Source: Patescibacteria group bacterium (lineage in GTDB: Bacteria; Patescibacteriota; Patescibacteriia; S139-126; S139-133). Taken from it: a DNA stretch of 64,000 bases. The notes beneath the pieces are model-generated. The model was given only the letters and a program-made list of their open reading frames with translations. It was not told where the DNA came from and did no database searches. Positions within the stretch are counted from its first letter, which is position 1; each line of letters begins with the position of its first letter. This document shows positions 450-49,562 of the stretch, piece after piece. The DNA lies in assembly GCA_049604715.1 (NCBI GenBank), contig JBMYTV010000001.1, positions 91,610 to 155,609 of the forward strand. Reading direction: 5' to 3'. Both the position numbers and the translations under genes were made by a program.

Positions 450-523
450 AATGATCTCCTGTTTTTGAAAGGACTTATTGTAAGTCCTGATATTACTCTA
501 AATGTTGTAATAAATCAAGACAC

Positions 524-553
524 AAAAACCCCCGCCGTAAAAGGCGGGGGTTT
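524..553 (-). terminator. rho-independent terminator downstream of efp
   Basis: GC-rich hairpin cccccgcc(529-536) / ggcggggg(543-550) with an A-run at 524-528, which is a T-run on the minus strand directly after the stem. Confidence 0.7.
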
Positions 554-571
554 GAGTTTCTAGTAAGCGGT

Positions 572-4916: not shown

Positions 4917-6551
4917 TTAGTCTACTTCTTCTTTTTTGTCTCGGACAAAAGATGTGATCTCTTCAAATGATGACACAATAAACTTATATGGTGCCTCAAT
5001 CACATAATCAAGGAAGAAGATGAAAAAGTTGATGCGTCGTGAGTTAAGTGAGATAAAGCGACCAGCTCTGATAATTGGTAGTGTAAACAAGTCAAAGATA
5101 AAGGTGAAAATGTTCTCTCTTTTACCAAGAACATTGAGTTCACGGGCACCAAGCCTCAAGCGAATACCAAAGAATGAAATCAATGTTAGGAATAAGATAA
5201 ATAGGAGACTAGAGACAATACTGAAGTTAAGACTTCGTAGTAGGTAGATGATTAGGCCAAATGTAATCAAGTAAATGATCAAATAAAATACATTGATAAA
5301 TATCCAACTGGCTGATCCAAACTGCGATGATTTGCGGAATTTTGCAACAATGGGCTTCATCTCTTCTCCATATACTAACTTTTTCACACCTTCCAAGATT
5401 TTCTTGGTATTTTTTTCTTTTGGAACACGTGTTGTTAATATTATAAGTGCCATCAAAAATGGAGGGAATAAGACATTGATCAAGACAGAGGGGTAGTGTA
5501 TTTCCTGTAGAATAAACATGTCATACGGTACTTCAACAGCTACCGCAACAATAACTTTAGTAAGGAAAATGTAAATCACAGATCTTATAGCGCCGCGGCG
5601 AAGTTTTTTGCGGGCGTTACCGTACCGTTTGTTTGCAGCCTTTTTTATCTCGTCTTCAAGTTGATTTGTGTAGCTAAGCGTGCGTTTCAGATGATCTCTA
5701 TTCTCTGCAAAGAGATCATTTAGGATCAAAAAGTAAACAGACAAGTTGTGTAGTCGTTTTTGTAGTATTTCACCAAGGGGGTGCTTGATCTGATGACTAA
5801 TAGCATGAACGAGCTTTGGGAAGTTGTCAGCAACTTTCATGATCACATCAGTCTGCGTGCCATCCCAGTTAGGGAAATAGAATTTGAACAAATAATATCG
5901 GAGTAGTGTTTCGTCTGATTTAATAATGTTTCTGTGAATAGCAATATAAATCTGGATATTTCGTTCCTTGTCGGTCGCAGGGAAGTTTCGGATATCTATC
6001 CTGGGTTTAACTATTCTGTAGAGTGTTTCAACTAGCGCGTCTTCACGAATAGGGGGTATGATTGATTCTTCAATTTCAGCTGCCATGATCTCCCAGATGA
6101 ACTGGTGGTACTCTTTAAGTTCATTACGTTTGTAGCGCATTCCGAGCTGGTCATAAAGCGTGATGTACTTATTGATAATGTTGGCTACGTCTTTGGCTTT
6201 GTCTTCAGGAATAGCATCATTTGGGAGGTATTGAGCGCGGATAAGTTCATGTAAAAGTGTTTCAGCAATGATCCCTGGATCTTTTCTGTTCATGCTCACT
6301 ACGCGCTTTGATATACGCTCAATAGCACTGCGTCTGAGAAGGTGGTCGTCTTTGTAATCAACGCTGTAGCGTAGCTTTTCATACAAGAGCGCCATTTTGC
6401 TTGTTATATAATTGAGCTTTATTTTGGGTTCTTTGTCTTTGTATAGCTCAATACCAAAAGGACCCTCATACACTTGTGCGAGGTTCTGGATGTCACTGTC
6501 TATGTCTTGTGTGCGGGATGGTTGACTCTGTGAAACTGCTTGCAGCGGCAT
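4917..6551 (-). CDS. hypothetical protein: large soluble N-terminal region with polytopic membrane C-terminal region
   Basis: 544 aa. About 330 aa of charged alpha-helical-looking sequence, then about 5 hydrophobic segments in the last 200 aa. No confident family assignment. Confidence 0.6.
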   Translation of the reverse strand: MPLQAVSQSQPSRTQDIDSDIQNLAQVYEGPFGIELYKDKEPKIKLNYITSKMALLYEKLRYSVDYKDDHLLRRSAIERISKRVVSMNRKDPGIIAETLLHELIRAQYLPNDAIPEDKAKDVANIINKYITLYDQLGMRYKRNELKEYHQFIWEIMAAEIEESIIPPIREDALVETLYRIVKPRIDIRNFPATDKERNIQIYIAIHRNIIKSDETLLRYYLFKFYFPNWDGTQTDVIMKVADNFPKLVHAISHQIKHPLGEILQKRLHNLSVYFLILNDLFAENRDHLKRTLSYTNQLEDEIKKAANKRYGNARKKLRRGAIRSVIYIFLTKVIVAVAVEVPYDMFILQEIHYPSVLINVLFPPFLMALIILTTRVPKEKNTKKILEGVKKLVYGEEMKPIVAKFRKSSQFGSASWIFINVFYLIIYLITFGLIIYLLRSLNFSIVSSLLFILFLTLISFFGIRLRLGARELNVLGKRENIFTFIFDLFTLPIIRAGRFISLNSRRINFFIFFLDYVIEAPYKFIVSSFEEITSFVRDKKEEVD

Positions 6552-7719: not shown

Positions 7720-8115
7720 ATGAAAAAGAACAACAGAAAAAAGACTAGGAAACGTCAAGCTCGTAGAAAAAAGGCAAAAATGCGTTTATTGGTCAGAATG
7801 CCAAACACATTTTCTGCTGAGGTTCGTAGTGATTTGAGGAAGTTAATTCGACAGGTGGTCAGCAGGGTGTTAGTGGCGGAACTTCAAAAGTCTGCGTCTG
7901 TTGGTAATACTATATCTGAAAAACACTGCGAAACATTGCTTCCTTTGAGCGAGAGATCATCTCTGTATCCTAGAATTTCTAAGTACTCGTTTGTTATTAC
8001 TGTAGATAGGCTAAGCGATGGTCAATTGCGTCAGTTCAAAGATGAAGTGCTGACAAATCAGACTTTTGGAAAGGGCCAGGCCTGCCAGTTGCTTATTACC
8101 CGCATTGAAGATTAG
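7720..8115 (+). CDS. hypothetical protein with highly basic N-terminus
   Basis: 131 aa. MKKNNRKKTRKRQARRKKAK... GGTGA-type RBS upstream. No family recognised. Confidence 0.5.
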   Translation: MKKNNRKKTRKRQARRKKAKMRLLVRMPNTFSAEVRSDLRKLIRQVVSRVLVAELQKSASVGNTISEKHCETLLPLSERSSLYPRISKYSFVITVDRLSDGQLRQFKDEVLTNQTFGKGQACQLLITRIED

Positions 8116-8129
8116 AATACCTTATTTTA

Positions 8130-8165
8130 TAAAAAAATCCGTTGAAACCAACGGATTTTAATATT
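8130..8165. terminator. bidirectional terminator between convergent genes
   Basis: Hairpin atccgttg-aaac-caacggat (8137-8158). A-run on the left and T-rich run on the right. Confidence 0.65.
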
Positions 8166-9229
8166 TATACATTGAATTTAAACAACATTACATCTCCATC
8201 TTGTACCACATAGTCTTTACCTTCTTGCCTGAGAGCGCCACTATCGCGGGCCCCGGCCCAGCCATTGCCTTGAGTAAATTTGTCAAAGGCAACAGTCTCA
8301 GCTCGAATAAAACCTTTTTCAAAGTCAGTATGAATTTGTCCAGCCGCATGCGGCGCCTTGCTGCCGCGTTTTACTGTCCAGGCTCTGGTTTCTTTTTCTC
8401 CAGAAGTGAAAAATGTAATTAGCTCAAGTAGTTCATATGATGCAGTGATAAGTTTATCAAGTCCAGTTTCAGTAACGCCACTGCTCTCTAAGTATTCTCT
8501 CATTTCAGTATCGTCTAGCTCAGAAAGCTCTGCTTCAATTTTCGCACAAACCTTTATGGTATTTGGCGGTAGATCATCAGACGAACCAAGTGCGTCTTCG
8601 TCTACATTGTATGCATACAAGAGTGGTTTGCTTGTGAGTAGGTTGAGTTGTTTTAACACAGTTTGTTCCTCGTCACTATACTCAGCAGTTGAAACCCATT
8701 TACCTTGTTCAAGTATAGGATGTATTTTTTCCAGTAGTGCAAGCTCTGCTTTAGCATCTGCATCGAGTCCACCCTTTGCATTGCGGCGTGCCTTATCAAG
8801 CCTCTTATCAACGCTAGCTAGATCGGCAAACACAAGTTCGAGATTTATGGTTTCCTTATCACTTTCTGGATCTACTTTGCCATCAACGTGGATAATGTTT
8901 GGATCATGAAAATTCCTAACAACTTCCAAAATGGCATCTACTTCACGGATGTGTGATAAGAATTGATTTCCCAAACCTTCACCTTGGTGTGCATTTTTAA
9001 CCAAACCTGCAATATCAACAAATTCAATACTTGTGGGGATGATTTTTTCTGATTTGCTTATCTGCGCGAGTTGAGCGAGTCTTTCATCAGGCACCTCAAC
9101 AACACCCACATTTGGATCAATAGTACAAAATGGAAAGTTAGCCGCATCGACTTCATTGCGGGTTAGGGCTTTAAATAGAGTTGATTTGCCAACATTGGGA
9201 AGGCCGACAATGCCAATCTGAAATGACAT
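8165..9229 (-). CDS. ychF: ribosome-binding ATPase YchF (Obg-like GTPase family)
   Basis: MSFQIGIVGLPNVGKSTLFKALT (G1). NFPFCTIDPNVGVV. Full-length 354 aa with C-terminal TGS-like MLFKFNV. Confidence 0.95.
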   Translation of the reverse strand: MSFQIGIVGLPNVGKSTLFKALTRNEVDAANFPFCTIDPNVGVVEVPDERLAQLAQISKSEKIIPTSIEFVDIAGLVKNAHQGEGLGNQFLSHIREVDAILEVVRNFHDPNIIHVDGKVDPESDKETINLELVFADLASVDKRLDKARRNAKGGLDADAKAELALLEKIHPILEQGKWVSTAEYSDEEQTVLKQLNLLTSKPLLYAYNVDEDALGSSDDLPPNTIKVCAKIEAELSELDDTEMREYLESSGVTETGLDKLITASYELLELITFFTSGEKETRAWTVKRGSKAPHAAGQIHTDFEKGFIRAETVAFDKFTQGNGWAGARDSGALRQEGKDYVVQDGDVMLFKFNV

Positions 9230-9541
9230 GTATAAATTTAAAATTGAAAATTAAAAAATGTAAAATCAAAAGTTATGTATCAAATTTTTTCCTACGTTTA
9301 GTACCAAGTCCGTTTAGTCTGCAATATTTATGTTACTAACTGCCCCTGACTTATACAGCTTTTAATCGCGTGTATTGTAGCTAAAATAGCATAAAAAGCA
9401 AGTTTTGTTTGTGCTAAATAGTTTTATAGACAAATACTTGTCATGGATGGTTGTTATTTGCTAAGATAAGGCATTGTATGGGTATACTGGATTATTTTAA
9501 CCTAACTTTAGCGAAAAGGTAGAGCAAGCGAATACATACAC

Positions 9542-9570
9542 TTGACAAAAGTTTATTTATGTGTTATTAT
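9542..9570 (+). promoter_or_regulatory. near-consensus sigma70-type promoter (TTGACA-N17-TATTAT)
   Basis: TTGACA at 9542-9547, 17-nt spacer, TATTAT at 9565-9570. A second TATAAT follows immediately at 9571-9576. Confidence 0.6.
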
Positions 9571-9604
9571 TATAATATAAGCTAGTACAGTAATTTAACA
9601 TAAC

Positions 9605-9653
9605 TGGTTGGTTATATAGGTAAATGAAGTTCGTTTGTCTATATAACCAACCA
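9605..9653 (+). promoter_or_regulatory. 15-bp perfect inverted repeat (leader hairpin or operator)
   Basis: tggttggttatatag (9605-9619) is the exact reverse complement of ctatataaccaacca (9639-9653), with a 19-nt loop. Lies between the promoter and the RBS of the small ORF. No adjacent U-tract, so it is not a canonical intrinsic terminator. Confidence 0.6.
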
Positions 9654-9668
9654 CAATAGGAGAGAATA

Positions 9669-9842
9669 ATGTATAAAGATCAATACGGCAATACAAGCAC
9701 GGGATTACTCTATAACCTATTAACATTAGAAGGCAATCCCAATGCACCACTTCCGGGCGGAAAAAAGGCTGCCAAGGTAATTAGCATCACACTCACCGCA
9801 TTTGGTGTCATTACTTCTATCGCATGCCTTATCTTTATGTAG
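9669..9842 (+). CDS. unannotated small ORF (57 aa) with predicted C-terminal TM helix
   Basis: ATG at 9669 preceded by AGGAGAG (9659-9665). MYKDQYGNTSTGLLYNLLTLEGNPNAPLPGGKKAAKVISITLTAFGVITSIACLIFM. Below the ORF-track length cutoff. Confidence 0.35.
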   Translation: MYKDQYGNTSTGLLYNLLTLEGNPNAPLPGGKKAAKVISITLTAFGVITSIACLIFM

Positions 9843-9998
9843 TTCTTCAATCTTCAAAAAATTGGGTCATTAATACAATCTTTAATGACCTACCCCCTGA
9901 AATTTTAAGCACAGTTTAAAGTTTCGGGAGGTTACAAAAGCTCTGCATCAGCAGGGCTTTTGTGTTATACTGTTATACCTATAGTAAAAATAGATAAT

Positions 9999-10586
9999 AT
10001 GGTGAACAAAAAAGCATTCATTTTTGACGCTGATGGTGTGGTTATAAATAGACCAATGGTTTTTAGTAGGGTTTTGGAAAAGGATCACGGAATAACCATA
10101 AAGCAAACAAAGGATTTTTTTACAGGACCTTTTCAAGAATGTTTAGTTGGTACTGGGGACTTAAAACAATTATTGCCAGAGTATTTAAATAAATGGAATT
10201 GGGAGGGGGGTGTAGATGAGTTTCTGAGATACTGGTTTAAGAGCGAACATTATATTGATTTAGATTTGATAAAAGGAATTGATACGCTGCGAAAGAGAGG
10301 GGGTCGGTTCTATATCGCAACTAACCAAGAGAAGTATCGTACAGAGTATATACGCAGTGATATGGGTTTGCATCAGCATTTTGATGATATTTTTTCATCA
10401 GCCTATTTGGGTGTTACAAAGCCACATAAAAGTTTTTATGATTCTATTTCATCAAAGCTTGAAAATCATGATATTTACTTTTGGGATGATGATGAGGATA
10501 ATGTGCGAGCGGCACGTGAAACCGGCTGGCGTGCCACACACTATAGCCGCCTGGATGATTTTACTAAAGTAATCAATAATTTATAA
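9999..10586 (+). CDS. HAD-superfamily hydrolase
   Basis: Motif I FIFDADGVV from the internal Met (MVNKKAFIFDADGVV). Motif III-like K...FWDDDEDNV. The ORF-track start at 9960 is probably too far upstream. Confidence 0.75.
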   Translation: MVNKKAFIFDADGVVINRPMVFSRVLEKDHGITIKQTKDFFTGPFQECLVGTGDLKQLLPEYLNKWNWEGGVDEFLRYWFKSEHYIDLDLIKGIDTLRKRGGRFYIATNQEKYRTEYIRSDMGLHQHFDDIFSSAYLGVTKPHKSFYDSISSKLENHDIYFWDDDEDNVRAARETGWRATHYSRLDDFTKVINNL

Positions 10587-10597
10587 CTTGTAGCTAT

Positions 10598-11836
10598 ATG
10601 AAAGATTTTGAAAAACACTTGGAAAAATATGCCAAACTTTTGGTAAGCACTGGTCTTAATATTCAACCAGGACAGCGCGTTCTTGTAAGTGCATCACTTG
10701 AACAAGCTGTTTGCGTGCGTGCGTTTGTAAAAGAAGCATACCGTGCTGGAGCAAAATACGTGGCAGTGTTTTGGGCTGATGAAGAAGTTACAAAGACGCG
10801 ATTTTTAGAAGCACCTGACGAATCATTTGACTATGCGCCGCAGTGGCGAGCAGATGCGTATAATGACATTGCGAAGAACGCTGACTGTATGGTCGGGTTT
10901 ACTGGTGGTGATCCTGATTTGCTTCGTGATATTGATCAAGAAAAATTGCAAAGATCTCGCATAGCAGGTGAGAGTAAAATTCGTGAGTTTAGGAAAATTC
11001 AAAAAAGTAACGGCATGAGCTGGTTGGTAGCATCTGCACCAACAGCGGCATGGGCAGCAAAGATTTTTGCCAGCGATCCTTCGGAGGATCAAATGGACAA
11101 GCTATGGGATGCTATTTTTACTACTTGCCGCGTATACGAGGATGATCCAATCGCAGCATGGCGTCAACACAATCAAGAACTACAAGCAAGGGCTTCGTAT
11201 ATGAATGAGAAGCAGTATGATGCCCTTCGCTATACCGGTGGTGGTACAGATTTTACGCTTGGTTTGCCTGAAGGACATATATGGGCATCAGGTGCGTCAG
11301 AGACAAAGCAAGGAATCGAGTATATCGCAAATATGCCCACAGAAGAGATTTTTACCCTGCCGCATCGTGATCAAGCTGATGGCGTGGTTAAAGCAACAAA
11401 GCCACTTAACTACGGTGGTACTGTGATTGAGGATATTGAGATTACTTTTAAAGACGGTAAGATCGTAAAGGCATCAGCATCAACCAATCAAGATTCGCTT
11501 GATAAGATTATTAGTATTGATGATGGAGCCAAAAAGCTTGGTGAAGTCGCGCTGGTGCCACACAGTTCAGCTATCTCACGTTCTGGTATTTTATTTTTCA
11601 ATACTTTATTTGATGAAAATGCTTCATGTCATTTAGCAATTGGTAGTGCATATAATTTTACACTTAAAGGCGGGGACGACATGGATGATAAAGCATTTAA
11701 CAAAGCTGGTGGAAATACTAGCCTTACACATGTCGACTTTATGATTGGTTCAGATAAACTTGATATTTTTGGTATAACAAAAGACGGAAACGAAGAGCCT
11801 GTTATGAAGCAGGGTGAATGGGCATTTGAAATTTAA
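10598..11836 (+). CDS. aminopeptidase, M29 family (AmpS/PepS-like)
   Basis: 412 aa. The KLLVSTGLNIQPGQRVLV... architecture and length are typical of thermophilic-metalloprotease M29 aminopeptidases. Confidence 0.8.
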   Translation: MKDFEKHLEKYAKLLVSTGLNIQPGQRVLVSASLEQAVCVRAFVKEAYRAGAKYVAVFWADEEVTKTRFLEAPDESFDYAPQWRADAYNDIAKNADCMVGFTGGDPDLLRDIDQEKLQRSRIAGESKIREFRKIQKSNGMSWLVASAPTAAWAAKIFASDPSEDQMDKLWDAIFTTCRVYEDDPIAAWRQHNQELQARASYMNEKQYDALRYTGGGTDFTLGLPEGHIWASGASETKQGIEYIANMPTEEIFTLPHRDQADGVVKATKPLNYGGTVIEDIEITFKDGKIVKASASTNQDSLDKIISIDDGAKKLGEVALVPHSSAISRSGILFFNTLFDENASCHLAIGSAYNFTLKGGDDMDDKAFNKAGGNTSLTHVDFMIGSDKLDIFGITKDGNEEPVMKQGEWAFEI

Positions 11837-17277: not shown

Positions 17278-17670
17278 ATGAACTATGGAGCAGTAGTATA
17301 TCGTTACTTGCAAGTGTGGGGAATTGTGCATTTGGTTGGTGCGTTTATGGCCTTTGTGTGGATGATTGATCACTCGGAAGTGTTTTATGCAGGTTCTTGG
17401 TTTACAAGCTTTGGATATATTTGGCTAGTTGTATGTATGGTTCTTATCGCCTTGTTTTGTAGTCGTATTTTTTATAAAAGGCCATTTTGGCCTATGGTAT
17501 TTCAGATTCTGTTTCTGATATTTGTAATCGTCTGTGCTAATAGCACAAATGAGGTATTCAAGAATTTTTACTTATTATTGTGTTTTAGCGCTGGGCTTTG
17601 CACTTCGGTTATGGCCGTCAACAGATGGCGCGAAATTACCAGCACAAAAATGAAAGGCTGGAATAGTTAG
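17278..17670 (+). CDS. hypothetical membrane protein
   Basis: 130 aa, 4 hydrophobic segments. GGGGGATGT-type RBS. Confidence 0.5.
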   Translation: MNYGAVVYRYLQVWGIVHLVGAFMAFVWMIDHSEVFYAGSWFTSFGYIWLVVCMVLIALFCSRIFYKRPFWPMVFQILFLIFVIVCANSTNEVFKNFYLLLCFSAGLCTSVMAVNRWREITSTKMKGWNS

Positions 17671-17677
17671 ATATCAA

Positions 17678-17705
17678 AAAACCGTCACCAAAGGTGACGG
17701 TTTCG
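17678..17705. terminator. bidirectional terminator between convergent genes
   Basis: aaaaa-accgtcacc-aaa-ggtgacggt-ttcg. Confidence 0.7.
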
Positions 17706-18947
17706 TTATGTGTAGAGCGGGAAGCGACTTGTTAGTTCAATTACTTTTTGTCTTATTGAGGCAAGTCTGTCTTGATCAGTGTGATGTGTCAGTGCTTCGT
17801 TGATATATTCAGCAATAAGTTTCATTTCAGGTTCTTTCATACCTCGTGTAGTAACTGCTGGCGTTCCAAGTCTGATACCTGATGGATCAAGCGGCTTTCG
17901 GGGATCATCTGGTATCATGTTCATGTTGAGGGTGATGTAAGCTTGATCAAGCGCTTCCTGGGCTTGTTTGCCAGTTATACCAAGCGGAGCAACATCTATA
18001 AGCAGCAAATGGTTGTCTGTTTGGCCAAAACATATGGTCATTCCATAGTCTTTTAGTTCTTGCTCAAGGATTTTTGCGTTACTCAAAATTTGCTTTGCAT
18101 ATGTTTCAAATCCAGGCTCAAGAGCTTCTTTAAATGCAATTGCCTTAGCAGCAATATTATTTTCGTGTGGCCCGCCTTGTAGGCCAGGAAAAACTGCTTT
18201 GTCTATTGCTTTTGCATGTTCTTTTTTGCACATGATCATACCACCACGCGGCCCACGGAGTGTTTTGTGTGTTGTGGTACTCACCACATCAAAAAGCGGC
18301 ACAGGACTACTCATAACACCAGCTGCAATCAGTCCAGCAATATGAGCAATATCTGCCATAGTAAGCGCACCCACTTCATCGGCGATGTGTTTTATTTTTT
18401 CATAGTCAATTTCACGTGAATATGCTGAGTATCCAACCAAGATCATTTGAGGCTTGTGCTCGCGTGCCATGCTTGCAAGATTGTCATAGTCAATAAGGCC
18501 AGTCGTGGAATCAGTTGTGTATCTTACAAAGTTGTATATATGTGACATAAATGTAACTGGATGACCATGAGTCAGATGTCCGCCGTGTCCTAAGTCCATA
18601 CCAAGTACGGTGTCTCCTGGTTTGAGCAGTGCCGAGTATACTGCAATATTTGCTGGCGCACCTGACAGAGGTTGGACATTAACGTGCTCAGCATCAAAGA
18701 GTTGTTTTGCTCGTTCAATCGCCAGTTGTTCTAGAATATCTATGTGTTGATTGCCGCCATAGTAGCGTTTGCCAGGGTATCCTTCTGAGTATTTATTTGT
18801 TGCAACTGAACCAAGTGCTTCAAGTACAGCAGAGGAAACATAATTCTCTGATGGAATAAGCTCAAGACCTTCTTGCTGACGCTTTTTTTCTTTTTCTAGC
18901 GCATCATAGATGTCTGGATCGTATTGGTTTAGAGGTTGTGTGTTCAT
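17706..18947 (-). CDS. glyA: serine hydroxymethyltransferase
   Basis: 413 aa. LIPSENYVS...TTTHKTLRGPRGG PLP-lysine region. Confidence 0.95.
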   Translation of the reverse strand: MNTQPLNQYDPDIYDALEKEKKRQQEGLELIPSENYVSSAVLEALGSVATNKYSEGYPGKRYYGGNQHIDILEQLAIERAKQLFDAEHVNVQPLSGAPANIAVYSALLKPGDTVLGMDLGHGGHLTHGHPVTFMSHIYNFVRYTTDSTTGLIDYDNLASMAREHKPQMILVGYSAYSREIDYEKIKHIADEVGALTMADIAHIAGLIAAGVMSSPVPLFDVVSTTTHKTLRGPRGGMIMCKKEHAKAIDKAVFPGLQGGPHENNIAAKAIAFKEALEPGFETYAKQILSNAKILEQELKDYGMTICFGQTDNHLLLIDVAPLGITGKQAQEALDQAYITLNMNMIPDDPRKPLDPSGIRLGTPAVTTRGMKEPEMKLIAEYINEALTHHTDQDRLASIRQKVIELTSRFPLYT

Positions 18948-37181: not shown

Positions 37182-37717
37182 TTATCTTTTGTAGCAAATA
37201 TTACCTTCACCAGTACCTCTTTTGGCAGAGGTTTTATACCATTGGTGTGAGAGTTTCTGTACATTGATTCTTAATCTTCCGGCGATGGTGGACAGGTCCG
37301 TGCTGGTGAGACAGACTCCAGAATATTGTGTGGACGGTTTTTGTCTGAGTTCACTGACCAGGCGGTCGATCAGTTTGGAGCTCGCGTTTCGTTTGAGTGA
37401 TCTCCCTCGTTTTTTTTGGCGCCGGCGAAGCAGAGAGTATCCGATTGCGCTAAGTAGCAGCGTCAGTTTTGAGTCCGGTTTCAGTTGAAGCATAATCTAC
37501 TCCTTTACAGGTTTGCCATTTTAACTTTTACAGTTTGTTCACTTCTGGAGTGAGACAGCTTTACTCTTCTGATGCCAAGTAGCTGTGCGAGGCGTTCCAG
37601 CTCTGGGTTGGTTAATTTTTTACCACTGTACTTGTGGTCATTGCCTGGGTAAGTTTCCAACCTTTCAGCTAGAAGCAAGATTCTATCTCTTCCTTTCATC
37701 TTGGTAAATCCTTTCAT
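37182..37717 (-). pseudogene. GC-rich degenerate gene remnant (two adjacent short ORFs in different frames), possibly mobile-element derived
   Basis: 70-aa and 103-aa minus-strand ORFs separated by 11 nt. Basic HTH-like N-terminus (KGRDRILLLAERLE...LTNPELERLAQLLGI). Local GC is clearly higher than the flanks. No intact family recognised. Confidence 0.3.
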
Positions 37718-37866
37718 TGCTTAGTTTAACTTGTGAAGTTGCATTTACGAGAAAATTATCTCGACATGCTTTACTATACTGATATTTTATTAAACTGTCA
37801 ATATAAAGTTCACAATCTGTATTTGTTTCCGTTTTTGTGCTATAGTTAGCTTAAATAAGCTATTTT

Positions 37867-47737: not shown

Positions 47738-47814
47738 GGCAGGGTAGCTCAGGTGGTTAGAGCGAGGGAATCATAACCCCTAGGTCGTGGGTTCAAGTCC
47801 CACCCCTGTCACCA
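47738..47814 (+). tRNA. tRNA with CAT anticodon (Met or lysidine-modified Ile2)
   Basis: GGCAGGG acceptor. D-arm GCTC/GAGC. Anticodon loop ATCATAA. T-arm GTGGG-TTCAAGT-CCCAC. CCA encoded. 77 nt. G1:C72 is paired, so not an initiator by that criterion. Confidence 0.8.
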
Positions 47815-47843
47815 AAAACTCACTTTTTTAAAGTGAGTTTTTG
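47814..47843 (+). terminator. rho-independent terminator after the tRNA pair
   Basis: aaactcacttt-ttt-aaagtgagttt followed by tt. Confidence 0.75.
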
Positions 47844-47912: not shown

Positions 47913-47940
47913 TTGACAAATTTTGATATACTTGTATAAT
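47913..47940 (+). promoter_or_regulatory. consensus sigma70-type promoter (TTGACA-N16-TATAAT) with no downstream long ORF
   Basis: TTGACA at 47913-47918 and TATAAT at 47935-47940. Confidence 0.55.
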
Positions 47941-48156
47941 ATATGTACAAGTTTAGACAACGCGTATCCCTGTGTTATTAATTAGAAAAAGAGTAATATA
48001 TGTTACTTTGTTTACCACATTCAATTAAAAACAACCAACGCGTTGTGAACAAAGCGGTTAGCCGACAGGCTATAGGTTGTTTTGCTTTTTCAGGAAATAA
48101 CGGTTGATTTCACACTCCGATATTTGTTCACGCAATCTAGTATCCCTCCATGCATT

Positions 48157-48188
48157 AGCACGTTAGTACGTGCTATTTATTTTTTTTC
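48157..48188 (+). terminator. plus-strand rho-independent terminator
   Basis: agcacgt-tagt-acgtgct followed by atttattttttttc. The U-tract exists only on the plus strand, although the stem overlaps the stop of the minus-strand trmB-like gene. Confidence 0.6.
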
Positions 48189-49148: not shown

Positions 49149-49176
49149 CTTGACGAATTTAATAATAGGAATATAA
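49149..49176 (+). promoter_or_regulatory. near-consensus sigma70-type promoter (TTGACG-N16-TATAAT)
   Basis: TTGACG at 49149-49154 and TATAAT at 49171-49176. Confidence 0.55.
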
Positions 49177-49293
49177 TAGTAAGTGAAGATAATCTACGAT
49201 TTATGCAGAAAGCAACCGTTACAAAACATTTCGCAACAAACATGTTGTTTTGCTGCACAAATCCAGGGCCAGTATTAATCAGTTAGCACATAA

Positions 49294-49340: not shown

Positions 49341-49562
49341 ATGCAGTATGCAAATGCAGGGTCAAAAGTCACAGTCAAGCTCAATGGTATTGAGCAGGAT
49401 TTGACGATTGTTGACCCTGAGTCAATTGACCCAAATAGCGGCTGCATTTCTTTTAATTCACCAATTGCGCAAGCTCTTATTGGGACAGAGCCTGGTGATA
49501 CTCGAGAAATTGATTTGCCAAACGGCAATCATGTGAGTCTCGAGATAGTTTCTGTCATATAG
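49341..49562 (+). CDS. GreA/GreB C-terminal (FKBP-like) domain-only protein
   Basis: 73 aa. DPNSGCISFNSPIAQALIGTEPGDTREIDLPNGNHVSLEIVSV parallels the GreA C-terminal domain ...DPSNGKISISSPLARALIGK.VGD.VEV..P.G...EILEV. No N-terminal coiled-coil domain is encoded upstream. Confidence 0.6.
   Translation: MQYANAGSKVTVKLNGIEQDLTIVDPESIDPNSGCISFNSPIAQALIGTEPGDTREIDLPNGNHVSLEIVSVI

Follow-up and report, generated by a model that had tools for sequence, protein, structure and literature searches.

Several described systems resemble the locus reported here, a putative small transcription unit around ORF57, an open reading frame (ORF) of 57 amino acids (aa) in a 64-kb stretch of DNA (the window, to which positions refer unless another locus is named) from a Patescibacteria (Candidate Phyla Radiation, CPR) metagenome-assembled genome of 40% G+C. 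The closest in kind are the small membrane proteins of fewer than 60 aa of the AcrZ, MgrB, CydX and KdpF class, which ORF57 resembles in its single predicted helix, in its own promoter, Shine–Dalgarno (SD) sequence and terminator, in having been missed by gene calling and in its restriction to one lineage. However, in that class the helix lies mostly at or near the N-terminus and the partners are known, whereas ORF57 would be tail-anchored, has no homologue that we found, and lies among housekeeping neighbours from which no partner can be inferred. Single-span SecE (~60 aa, cytoplasmic N-terminus, C-terminal helix) has the same size and tail-anchored layout, but ORF57 matches neither the Pfam SecE model nor any other, its gene is not next to nusG, and its absence from close relatives implies that, unlike SecE, it is not a core gene.

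Two further systems bear on the peptide and on its mRNA leader. With the type I toxin–antitoxin pairs txpA/RatA and bsrG/SR4 of Bacillus subtilis, the ORF57 unit shares a strong promoter, a hydrophobic peptide of fewer than 60 aa, an mRNA that is highly structured and probably stable, and, shortly after the stop codon, a hairpin that is terminator-like on the opposite strand; it differs in having no credible antisense promoter, no significant SD sequestration and no family match, in its reversed topology and in its single copy in the window. Gram-positive mRNA stabilisers (the aprE leader, ermC and cryIIIA STAB-SD) likewise combine a stable stem-loop near a strong, accessible SD with a well-promoted gene. 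Those leaders are effective when only a few nt separate the stem from the 5′ end, whereas about 28 nt would precede the ORF57 leader stem (H1) unless the leader is processed, and H1, with 23 bp, is much longer than such stabilisers need and has the size of an RNase III substrate.

Against this background, ORF57 adds another example to a known kind, the unannotated genes for small membrane proteins whose mRNAs have structured untranslated regions (UTRs), and on present evidence the unit remains a single-genome curiosity rather than a new system. The interpretation that we favour, with about even confidence, is that 9542–9971 is a self-contained small transcription unit of ~390 nt on the plus strand, comprising a gene for a small, lineage-specific membrane protein and stem-loops that would serve in the stability or processing of its mRNA. 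If ORF57 is translated, a Patescibacteria genome, from a group whose small membrane proteins are essentially uncharted, would gain an unannotated, lineage-specific, tail-anchored micro-protein. Its structured mRNA, set against a genome that is mostly SD-less and leader-poor, would also provide a natural case for SD-led message handling and RNA decay.

A candidate transcription unit on the plus strand

The unit lies in a gap of 769 bp (9230–9998; given as 730 bp in the original prediction) between ychF and a HAD-family hydrolase gene, and has the following elements:

9542–9570, + strand, sigma-70-type promoter: −35 element TTGACA at 9542–9547, 17-nt spacer, extended −10 element TGtTATTAT at 9562–9570
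9577–9604, + strand, predicted unpaired, A/U-rich 5′ end of the leader, ~28 nt (RNA folding)
9605–9653, + strand, leader stem-loop H1: 23 bp, 3-nt loop, arms 9605–9627/9631–9653
9658–9664, + strand, SD sequence AGGAGAG, 4 nt before the ATG and 5 nt after the base of H1
9669–9842, + strand, ORF57: ATG at 9669, TAG at 9840–9842, 57 aa, translation MYKDQYGNTSTGLLYNLLTLEGNPNAPLPGGKKAAKVISITLTAFGVITSIACLIFM
9864–9891, + strand, 3′-UTR stem-loop H3: 10 bp, 8-nt loop, arms 9864–9873/9882–9891
9892–9932, + strand, 3′-UTR stem-loop H4: 15-bp core 9896–9910/9914–9928 closed by a 3-nt loop, three of its pairs G·U, and extended outwards by 3 bp
9934–9971, + strand, putative intrinsic terminator H5: stem 9934–9946/9951–9963, with A-tract, 7-bp G+C-rich core and T-tract, ACAAAAGCTCTGC atca GCAGGGCTTTTGT GTT

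The promoter, inverted repeat, AGGAGAG ribosome-binding site and 57-aa ORF had all been placed at these positions by the original prediction, and all were found there in the sequence. The gap had been described as lying upstream of ychF, but the promoter is on the + strand and ychF on the − strand, and the promoter therefore points away from ychF. The description of the gap as AT-rich held for the flanks of ORF57 (GC 0.29–0.33) but not for ORF57 itself (GC 0.40).

The promoter (TTGACA-N17-TATTAT) matches the consensus at 11 of 12 positions, carries the TG of an extended −10 element at 9562–9563, and is the top-scoring site in 8000–11000. Eight sites matching at 11 or more of 12 positions occur in the 64-kb window, compared with 2.1±1.4 in shuffled sequences, and the others are mostly found directly before a tRNA gene or before ORFs, of which several are small. 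This enrichment and placement imply that the sigma-70 consensus appears to be in use in this genome. Judged from the promoter, transcription of ORF57 would start at ~9577.

An 11-nt direct repeat, TT[A/T]TGTGTTAT, is present at 9557–9567 and 9958–9968 (+ strand), its copies 401 nt apart; one falls in the −10 region of ORF57 and the other at the terminator T-tract and putative extended −10 element of the HAD gene. A target-site duplication around an insertion of ~390 bp was considered but is less likely, because two extended −10 motifs are the simpler explanation. The repeat thus probably represents two similar promoter motifs.

The leader hairpin H1 looks like an RNA-level element

The exact 15-bp inverted repeat noted earlier (9605–9619 with 9639–9653) stands, but its loop is not 19 nt. 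As + strand RNA, eight further inner pairs, three of them G·U, extend the stem to 23 consecutive pairs and leave a loop of 3 nt. The fold energy of the 59-nt segment containing H1 was −27.7 kcal/mol on the + strand versus −8.5±2.6 kcal/mol in shuffled sequences (z = −7.55), none of 200 shuffles was as stable, and the mean pair probability was 0.97. The energy on the − strand was −20.8 kcal/mol, weaker because the G·U pairs turn into C·A mismatches there. The nucleotides 5′ of the stem (9577–9604) have no predicted local partner, save for one pairing that depends on the chosen transcript ends.

H1 is the longest inverted repeat in the window. Its sequence is single-copy there, the sole match being its own second arm, and a repeated or mobile hairpin, such as a repetitive extragenic palindrome or an element like a miniature inverted-repeat transposable element, was rejected on this ground. 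The exact two-arm pattern was also absent from the metagenome and viral contigs scanned. The stem is A/U-rich and is followed by CAAUAGGAGAG instead of a U-tract; the earlier view that it is not a terminator was borne out, since it has neither a G+C-rich stem nor a U-tract and the terminator of the unit appears to be H5. The hairpin had been proposed to be either an operator or a stabilising or regulatory leader stem. The G·U bias and the strand energies support the second, at the RNA level, and disfavour a DNA operator; H1 therefore looks like an RNA-level leader element.

The 3′-UTR helices and the fold of the whole transcript

The helices beyond ORF57 show the same preference for the + strand. 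H3 has a pair probability of 0.99, and H3 and H4 jointly fold at −32.2 kcal/mol on the + strand versus −23.2 kcal/mol on the − strand (z = −7.1 versus −3.8). H5 folds at −20.7 kcal/mol (z = −5.55) and has the same A-tract, stem and T-tract design as the other strong gene-end hairpins of the window (518–561, 8129–8164, 17668–17714 and 47813–47843), and was for this reason taken as the terminator of the unit. It overlaps a putative promoter element of the HAD gene, the likely extended −10 TGtTATACT at 9963–9971.

The predicted 396-nt RNA as a whole (~9577–9972) folds at −128.9 kcal/mol compared with −80.4±5.4 kcal/mol in shuffled sequences (z = −9.0), and the opposite strand gives z = −6.65. The four helices contain nine non-Watson–Crick positions, of which eight form G·U pairs when read as + strand RNA and the ninth is A·C; since the + strand served to define the helices, this bias is in part inflated. 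All four helices are 4–9 kcal/mol more stable on the + strand. This bias argues for selection on a + strand RNA over a DNA palindrome. A search of Rfam 15 with the unit gave as its best match the Plastid-psbM 3′ UTR, a generic long-hairpin match of 29.4 bits against a gathering threshold of 52.7 (E = 0.073). In the window, tRNAs were the only Rfam families that passed the gathering threshold, and a tmRNA search found none.

ORF57 is likely coding and predicted to be a tail-anchored membrane peptide

The start of ORF57 is unusual for chance sequence. The conjunction of an SD (AGGAG or GGAGG), an ATG 4–9 nt later and at least 57 open codons occurred in 0.14% of 5000 dinucleotide-shuffled gaps, and in 0.58% of the shuffled gaps when any 4-mer SD core was accepted. 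SD motifs are rare in the genome (5 of 51 long ORFs), and several ORFs that lie at or close to gene starts, among them ones of 83, 103 and 149 codons, are headed by AGGAG or GGAGG followed by ATG. In a three-periodic Markov model trained on the long ORFs of the window, ORF57 scored −0.034 bits/codon, above all 117 shadow ORFs of the same size (−0.336±0.147) and by far the best of the six frames.

The N-terminal 35 aa of the product are polar, and the chain runs from a low-confidence helix at residues 10–22 through an NPNAPLPGG linker and KKAAK to a 21-residue hydrophobic helix that reaches the C-terminus. The last ~22 residues are hydrophobic (mean Kyte–Doolittle value of 2.19 over the last 20), and a single-sequence AlphaFold2 model has a helix at residues 32–56 with a predicted local distance difference test (pLDDT) of 86–90. 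Hydropathy and model thus agree with the original description of an ORF ending in a hydrophobic helix, and ORF57 is predicted to be a tail-anchored membrane peptide.

Several results weigh against this interpretation. The codon score of ORF57 is below that of 99% of real-gene segments (0.258±0.119), and its GC content is 0.41 at each codon position, without the coding periodicity of the genome (0.54/0.36/0.32). Most genes here lack an SD and have short leaders or none, so that a long structured leader is atypical. No homologue of ORF57 was found among ~15 billion predicted proteins, and evidence of purifying selection is thereby absent; no homologue of H1 was found either, and with one sequence only there is no evidence from covariation. 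The collection holds no gene with the ORF57 product, although a contig identical to this locus (L081) belongs to it. Lastly, nothing similar to ORF57 or to the DNA of the unit was found at the corresponding position in the nearest relatives, whose YchF proteins are 73–79% identical.

The protein searches combined a word-indexed search with full HMMER runs against 1.84 billion representatives. ORF57 matched no family in Pfam at E≤1 and none in NCBIfam, PHROGs or PADLOC at E≤10; back-translated scans of the metagenome and viral contigs gave no homologue, TBLASTN against 91 fetched loci gave no match, and no second copy was present in the window. The one match, marginal at E = 4e-4, was with a repeat in a Gram-positive surface protein of 2197 aa and was judged compositional. 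The original prediction held that the ORF would fall if its amino acid sequence were not conserved in relatives. No homologue was indeed found, and this weakens the case for a conserved family, but it does not show that ORF57 is untranslated. Taking both sides together, translation of ORF57 is rather probable, and the frame is likely, though not proven, to be coding.

The alternative that survives best, possible but unlikely in our judgement, is that the product of the unit is a non-coding small RNA, ~390 nt long and structured by four stable stem-loops, in which the 57-codon frame and the SD-like purine stretch are fortuitous. The extreme fold score of the transcript, the + strand bias of its helices, the low codon score, the flat GC profile, the lack of a homologue or of a called gene, and the rarity of SD use would all fit such an RNA, and other frames of the gap hold ORFs of 51–52 aa, which makes length alone unremarkable. 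Yet the conjunction of SD, ATG and frame is too infrequent in shuffled gaps to be readily fortuitous, the frame outscores all shadow ORFs and the five other frames, and its product has the clean layout of KKAAK followed by a 21-residue hydrophobic helix. Moreover, the body of the ORF (9683–9830) adds weak, low-probability helices only, and the unit matches no Rfam family at E<0.05.

Apart from ORF57, 8 of 52 long ORFs (15%) have a TATAAT-like box (at least 5/6) whose end lies 4–12 nt upstream of the ATG, compared with 5.6% of random ATGs, which suggests that a share of the mRNAs in this genome is leaderless or has a very short leader.

Proposed fate of the transcript

On the favoured interpretation, a small membrane-protein gene with structured UTRs, a strong constitutive promoter would give rise to a monocistronic mRNA of ~390 nt with a leader of ~92 nt. 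H1 would fold once transcribed while the SD stays single-stranded: the unpaired probability of the SD in a nascent transcript ending at 9700 is 0.84. Because H1 leaves the SD free, H1 alone would be no translational off-switch and would not block initiation. H1, H3 and H4 may instead act as RNA-level determinants of stability or processing, either by blocking exonucleases or as RNase III-type cleavage sites. A helix of at least 20 bp, as H1 is, would be within the range of RNase III-type cleavage, and the place of H1 just 5′ of the SD would suit a barrier that defines a stable processed 5′ end, while H3, H4 and H5 would protect the 3′ end. Such stabilising or processing helices would set the amount of the small membrane protein made, and the peptide would insert as a tail-anchored membrane protein with its polar N-terminal half in the cytoplasm. 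We infer the stabilising or processing role of the helices, and the 28 unpaired nt at the 5′ end, which differ from the classical layout of a 5′-terminal stabiliser, count against it.

Toxin and bacteriocin readings of ORF57

The original prediction listed type I toxins among the possible identities of the peptide. In such a module, ORF57 and its mRNA would be the toxin half, a membrane-damaging, tail-anchored peptide, and an antisense RNA on the − strand would start at a non-consensus promoter near 9990, cross the 3′ UTR and stop at the hairpin at 9890–9865 (ending at ~9856), as in txpA/RatA and bsrG/SR4. Such a module, were it real, would represent a new toxin family in which the topology is reversed; we consider it very unlikely. 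ORF57 does fall into the size class of type I toxins, with 57 aa and one predicted membrane helix behind a strong promoter, its mRNA is predicted to be very stable and structured, and it lies in a variable accessory slot. Read on the − strand (9890–9865), H3 resembles an intrinsic terminator, its stem followed by CAATTTTTTG and ending ~14 nt beyond the ORF57 stop codon, but terminator-like matches in the ORF57 region are at chance frequency (three found versus 2.3±1.5 expected). No gene or convincing promoter lies upstream of this hairpin on the − strand. The proposed search for an antisense RNA on the opposite strand was made as a promoter scan of 9560–10160 (−), which gave no site of 9/12 or better; an 8/12 promoter-like site is present at 10021–9994 (−), but 8/12 sites are undistinctive, with several on each strand.

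Translational control by fold-back fared no better. The full-length minimum free energy (MFE) fold pairs the SD, AUG and first codons (9659–9680) with the stop-codon region (9831–9855), but the duplex of −13.3 kcal/mol compares with −11.8±2.0 kcal/mol in shuffled sequences (p = 0.22); 22–25% of targets that were shuffled or unrelated equal it, and the SD is occluded to the same degree in 24% of shuffles. Inhibition of this kind, although predicted, is thus not above chance and was rejected. The 3′-UTR helices are weaker on the − strand, which would be that of the antisense RNA, and no second copy of the module occurs in the window. ORF57 matched no toxin family, including Hok/Gef, Ldr/Fst, TxpA/BsrG, Ibs and TisB, within the limits given above for Pfam, NCBIfam, PHROGs and PADLOC. 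Its topology also argues against a toxin of the classical sort: the membrane helix is C-terminal, follows a polar N-terminus and lacks a charged tail, whereas Hok, Fst, TxpA, BsrG and TisB have the opposite arrangement. A literature search gave no paper joining type I toxin–antitoxin systems with the CPR.

A bacteriocin-like peptide, also suggested originally, was not supported. ORF57 has GG at residues 30–31, followed by KKAAK and the hydrophobic 21-mer, together a cationic hydrophobic 26-mer, but the residues at −7 and −8 (N and P) do not fit the L/E consensus of double-glycine leaders, which is met in part only. No bacteriocin or leader model in Pfam or NCBIfam matched ORF57. The only ORFs of more than 550 aa in the window encode topoisomerase I and Mfd, which leaves no room for a peptidase-ABC exporter of ~700 aa in the window, and no exporter or immunity gene is found among the neighbours of ORF57 (ychF, the HAD hydrolase gene and an M29 peptidase gene).

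The unit is separate from ychF and fills a variable slot

The neighbouring genes (identified by Pfam) and the ychF promoter, which lies outside the unit, are as follows:

8165–9229, − strand, ychF (Pfam YchF-GTPase_C and MMR_HSR1)
9360–9409, − strand, ychF promoter, TTGCTT-N16-TACAAT, conserved in most relatives
9999–10586, + strand, HAD-family hydrolase gene, the next called gene beyond the gap
10598–11836, + strand, M29 aminopeptidase gene, directly after the HAD gene

BLASTN against the loci of relatives (numbered L081 and upwards) showed that 9360–9409 is the sole conserved non-coding block of the gap. It lies directly upstream of ychF in L082, L083 and L085–L088, and the alignment shows TTGCTT-N16-TACAAT on the ychF strand, indicating that ychF has its own promoter and that the ORF57 unit is not a ychF leader. 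The unit starts 130 nt farther out and runs in the opposite direction. The possibility, raised with the original prediction, that the region is only the promoter and 5′ UTR of ychF is answered by these results: all elements of the unit are on the + strand, ychF is on the − strand, and only 9360–9409 is conserved upstream of ychF, so that the unit is a separate one. The ychF promoter block corresponds to 2495–2525 in L082, 3947–3991 in L085 and 3940–3988 in L088, relatives with a 74–79% identical YchF. Between this promoter and the ychF ATG, the window has ~125 nt more than relatives with 75% identity, an unusually long ychF 5′ UTR.

Only one other contig with this YchF (L081) was retrieved, and over 13 kb it shows 100% identity. 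After it, YchF identity falls to 79% and then to 73–75%, and that of the nearest HAD homologue is 51%. The relatives have ychF and the M29 gene in divergent orientation on either side of a common intergenic region, the contents of which vary by genome:

L085–L088: no gene, gaps of ~95–130 bp
L082 (1673–2604): 138-aa membrane protein and Cys-rich ORF
L084 (2904–4000): 133-aa protein and serine hydrolase
L090 (2805–3500): 133-aa protein only
L092 (1927–3500): 133-aa protein, 94-aa protein and amidohydrolase
L091 (1423–3500): NUDIX, RNase T and patatin genes

Conservation of the ORF and hairpin in related genomes had been proposed as a check, and the nearest relatives lack the whole unit. Since the contents of the slot differ and none is like ORF57, the ORF57 unit and the HAD gene together form a lineage-specific filling of a variable slot. 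The unit as a pseudogene remnant of the slot genes of relatives was rejected for want of similarity. More generally, the ychF–M29 slot (9410–10597 in the window) is a gene-turnover hotspot in which all inserts are oriented like the M29 gene.

The order of genes on the + strand raises another explanation, that the region is a long regulatory leader of an operon of the HAD and M29 genes, in which the strong promoter drives both, the hairpin at 9934–9963 is a regulated attenuator and ORF57 is a leader ORF. Only 36 nt separate that hairpin from the HAD ATG, which is on the same strand, the M29 gene comes 12 nt after the HAD gene, the HAD gene shows a −10 element with only a poor −35 element, and relatives without an insert transcribe M29 directly from this side of the ychF promoter. 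However, the ORF57 stop codon is ~92 nt upstream of the terminator with two stable helices between them, neither the MFE nor the centroid fold contains an antiterminator pairing, 57 codons are long for a leader peptide, and the extended −10 TGtTATACT, ~27 nt before the HAD ATG, would give the HAD gene a short leader of the type common in this genome. We regard this explanation as highly improbable.

It is hardly credible that the inverted repeat acts as DNA, as an operator at which a dimeric or tetrameric repressor would block the promoter or as a recombination site such as an integron attC-like site in a cassette slot. In favour of this view, the 15-bp arms match perfectly and span +28 to +77 relative to a strong promoter, in a locus of variable content. 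Against it, the stem goes on through three G·U pairs at positions where the opposite strand, and the DNA, have C·A mismatches, 15-bp half-sites 19 bp apart are unlike known operators, and the extrahelical bases of attC sites are lacking. Moreover, the domain-bearing genes examined were all housekeeping, Pfam scans of part of the window showed no regulator, integrase or transposase, and the sequence is unrepeated in the window and in the scanned collections.

In all relatives examined, as in the window, a protein of 542–544 aa without a Pfam domain is encoded at the same place near ychF (window 4917–6551 on the − strand, L082 4579–6213, L084 7337–8971, L085 5875–7509 and L088 6558–8186), and is thus a conserved unknown of the clade.

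Other strong promoters in the window

Strong promoters are often found upstream of small genes in this genome. A 70-aa ORF at 37505–37717 (−) lies behind an 11/12 promoter at 37801–37773 (−) and has a codon score of −0.064 bits/codon, and a 73-aa ORF at 49341–49562 (+) lies behind an 11/12 promoter at 49150–49177 (+) and has a score of +0.121 bits/codon. A perfect 12/12 promoter, TTGACA-16-TATAAT, is present at 47913–47940 (+), directly after two tRNA genes. The ORFs between it and the next gene, which is on the opposite strand, are all tiny (12 and 35 codons), and 47913–48172 (+) has no Rfam match at E≤1; this region is a candidate for a small RNA or a micro-ORF transcript.

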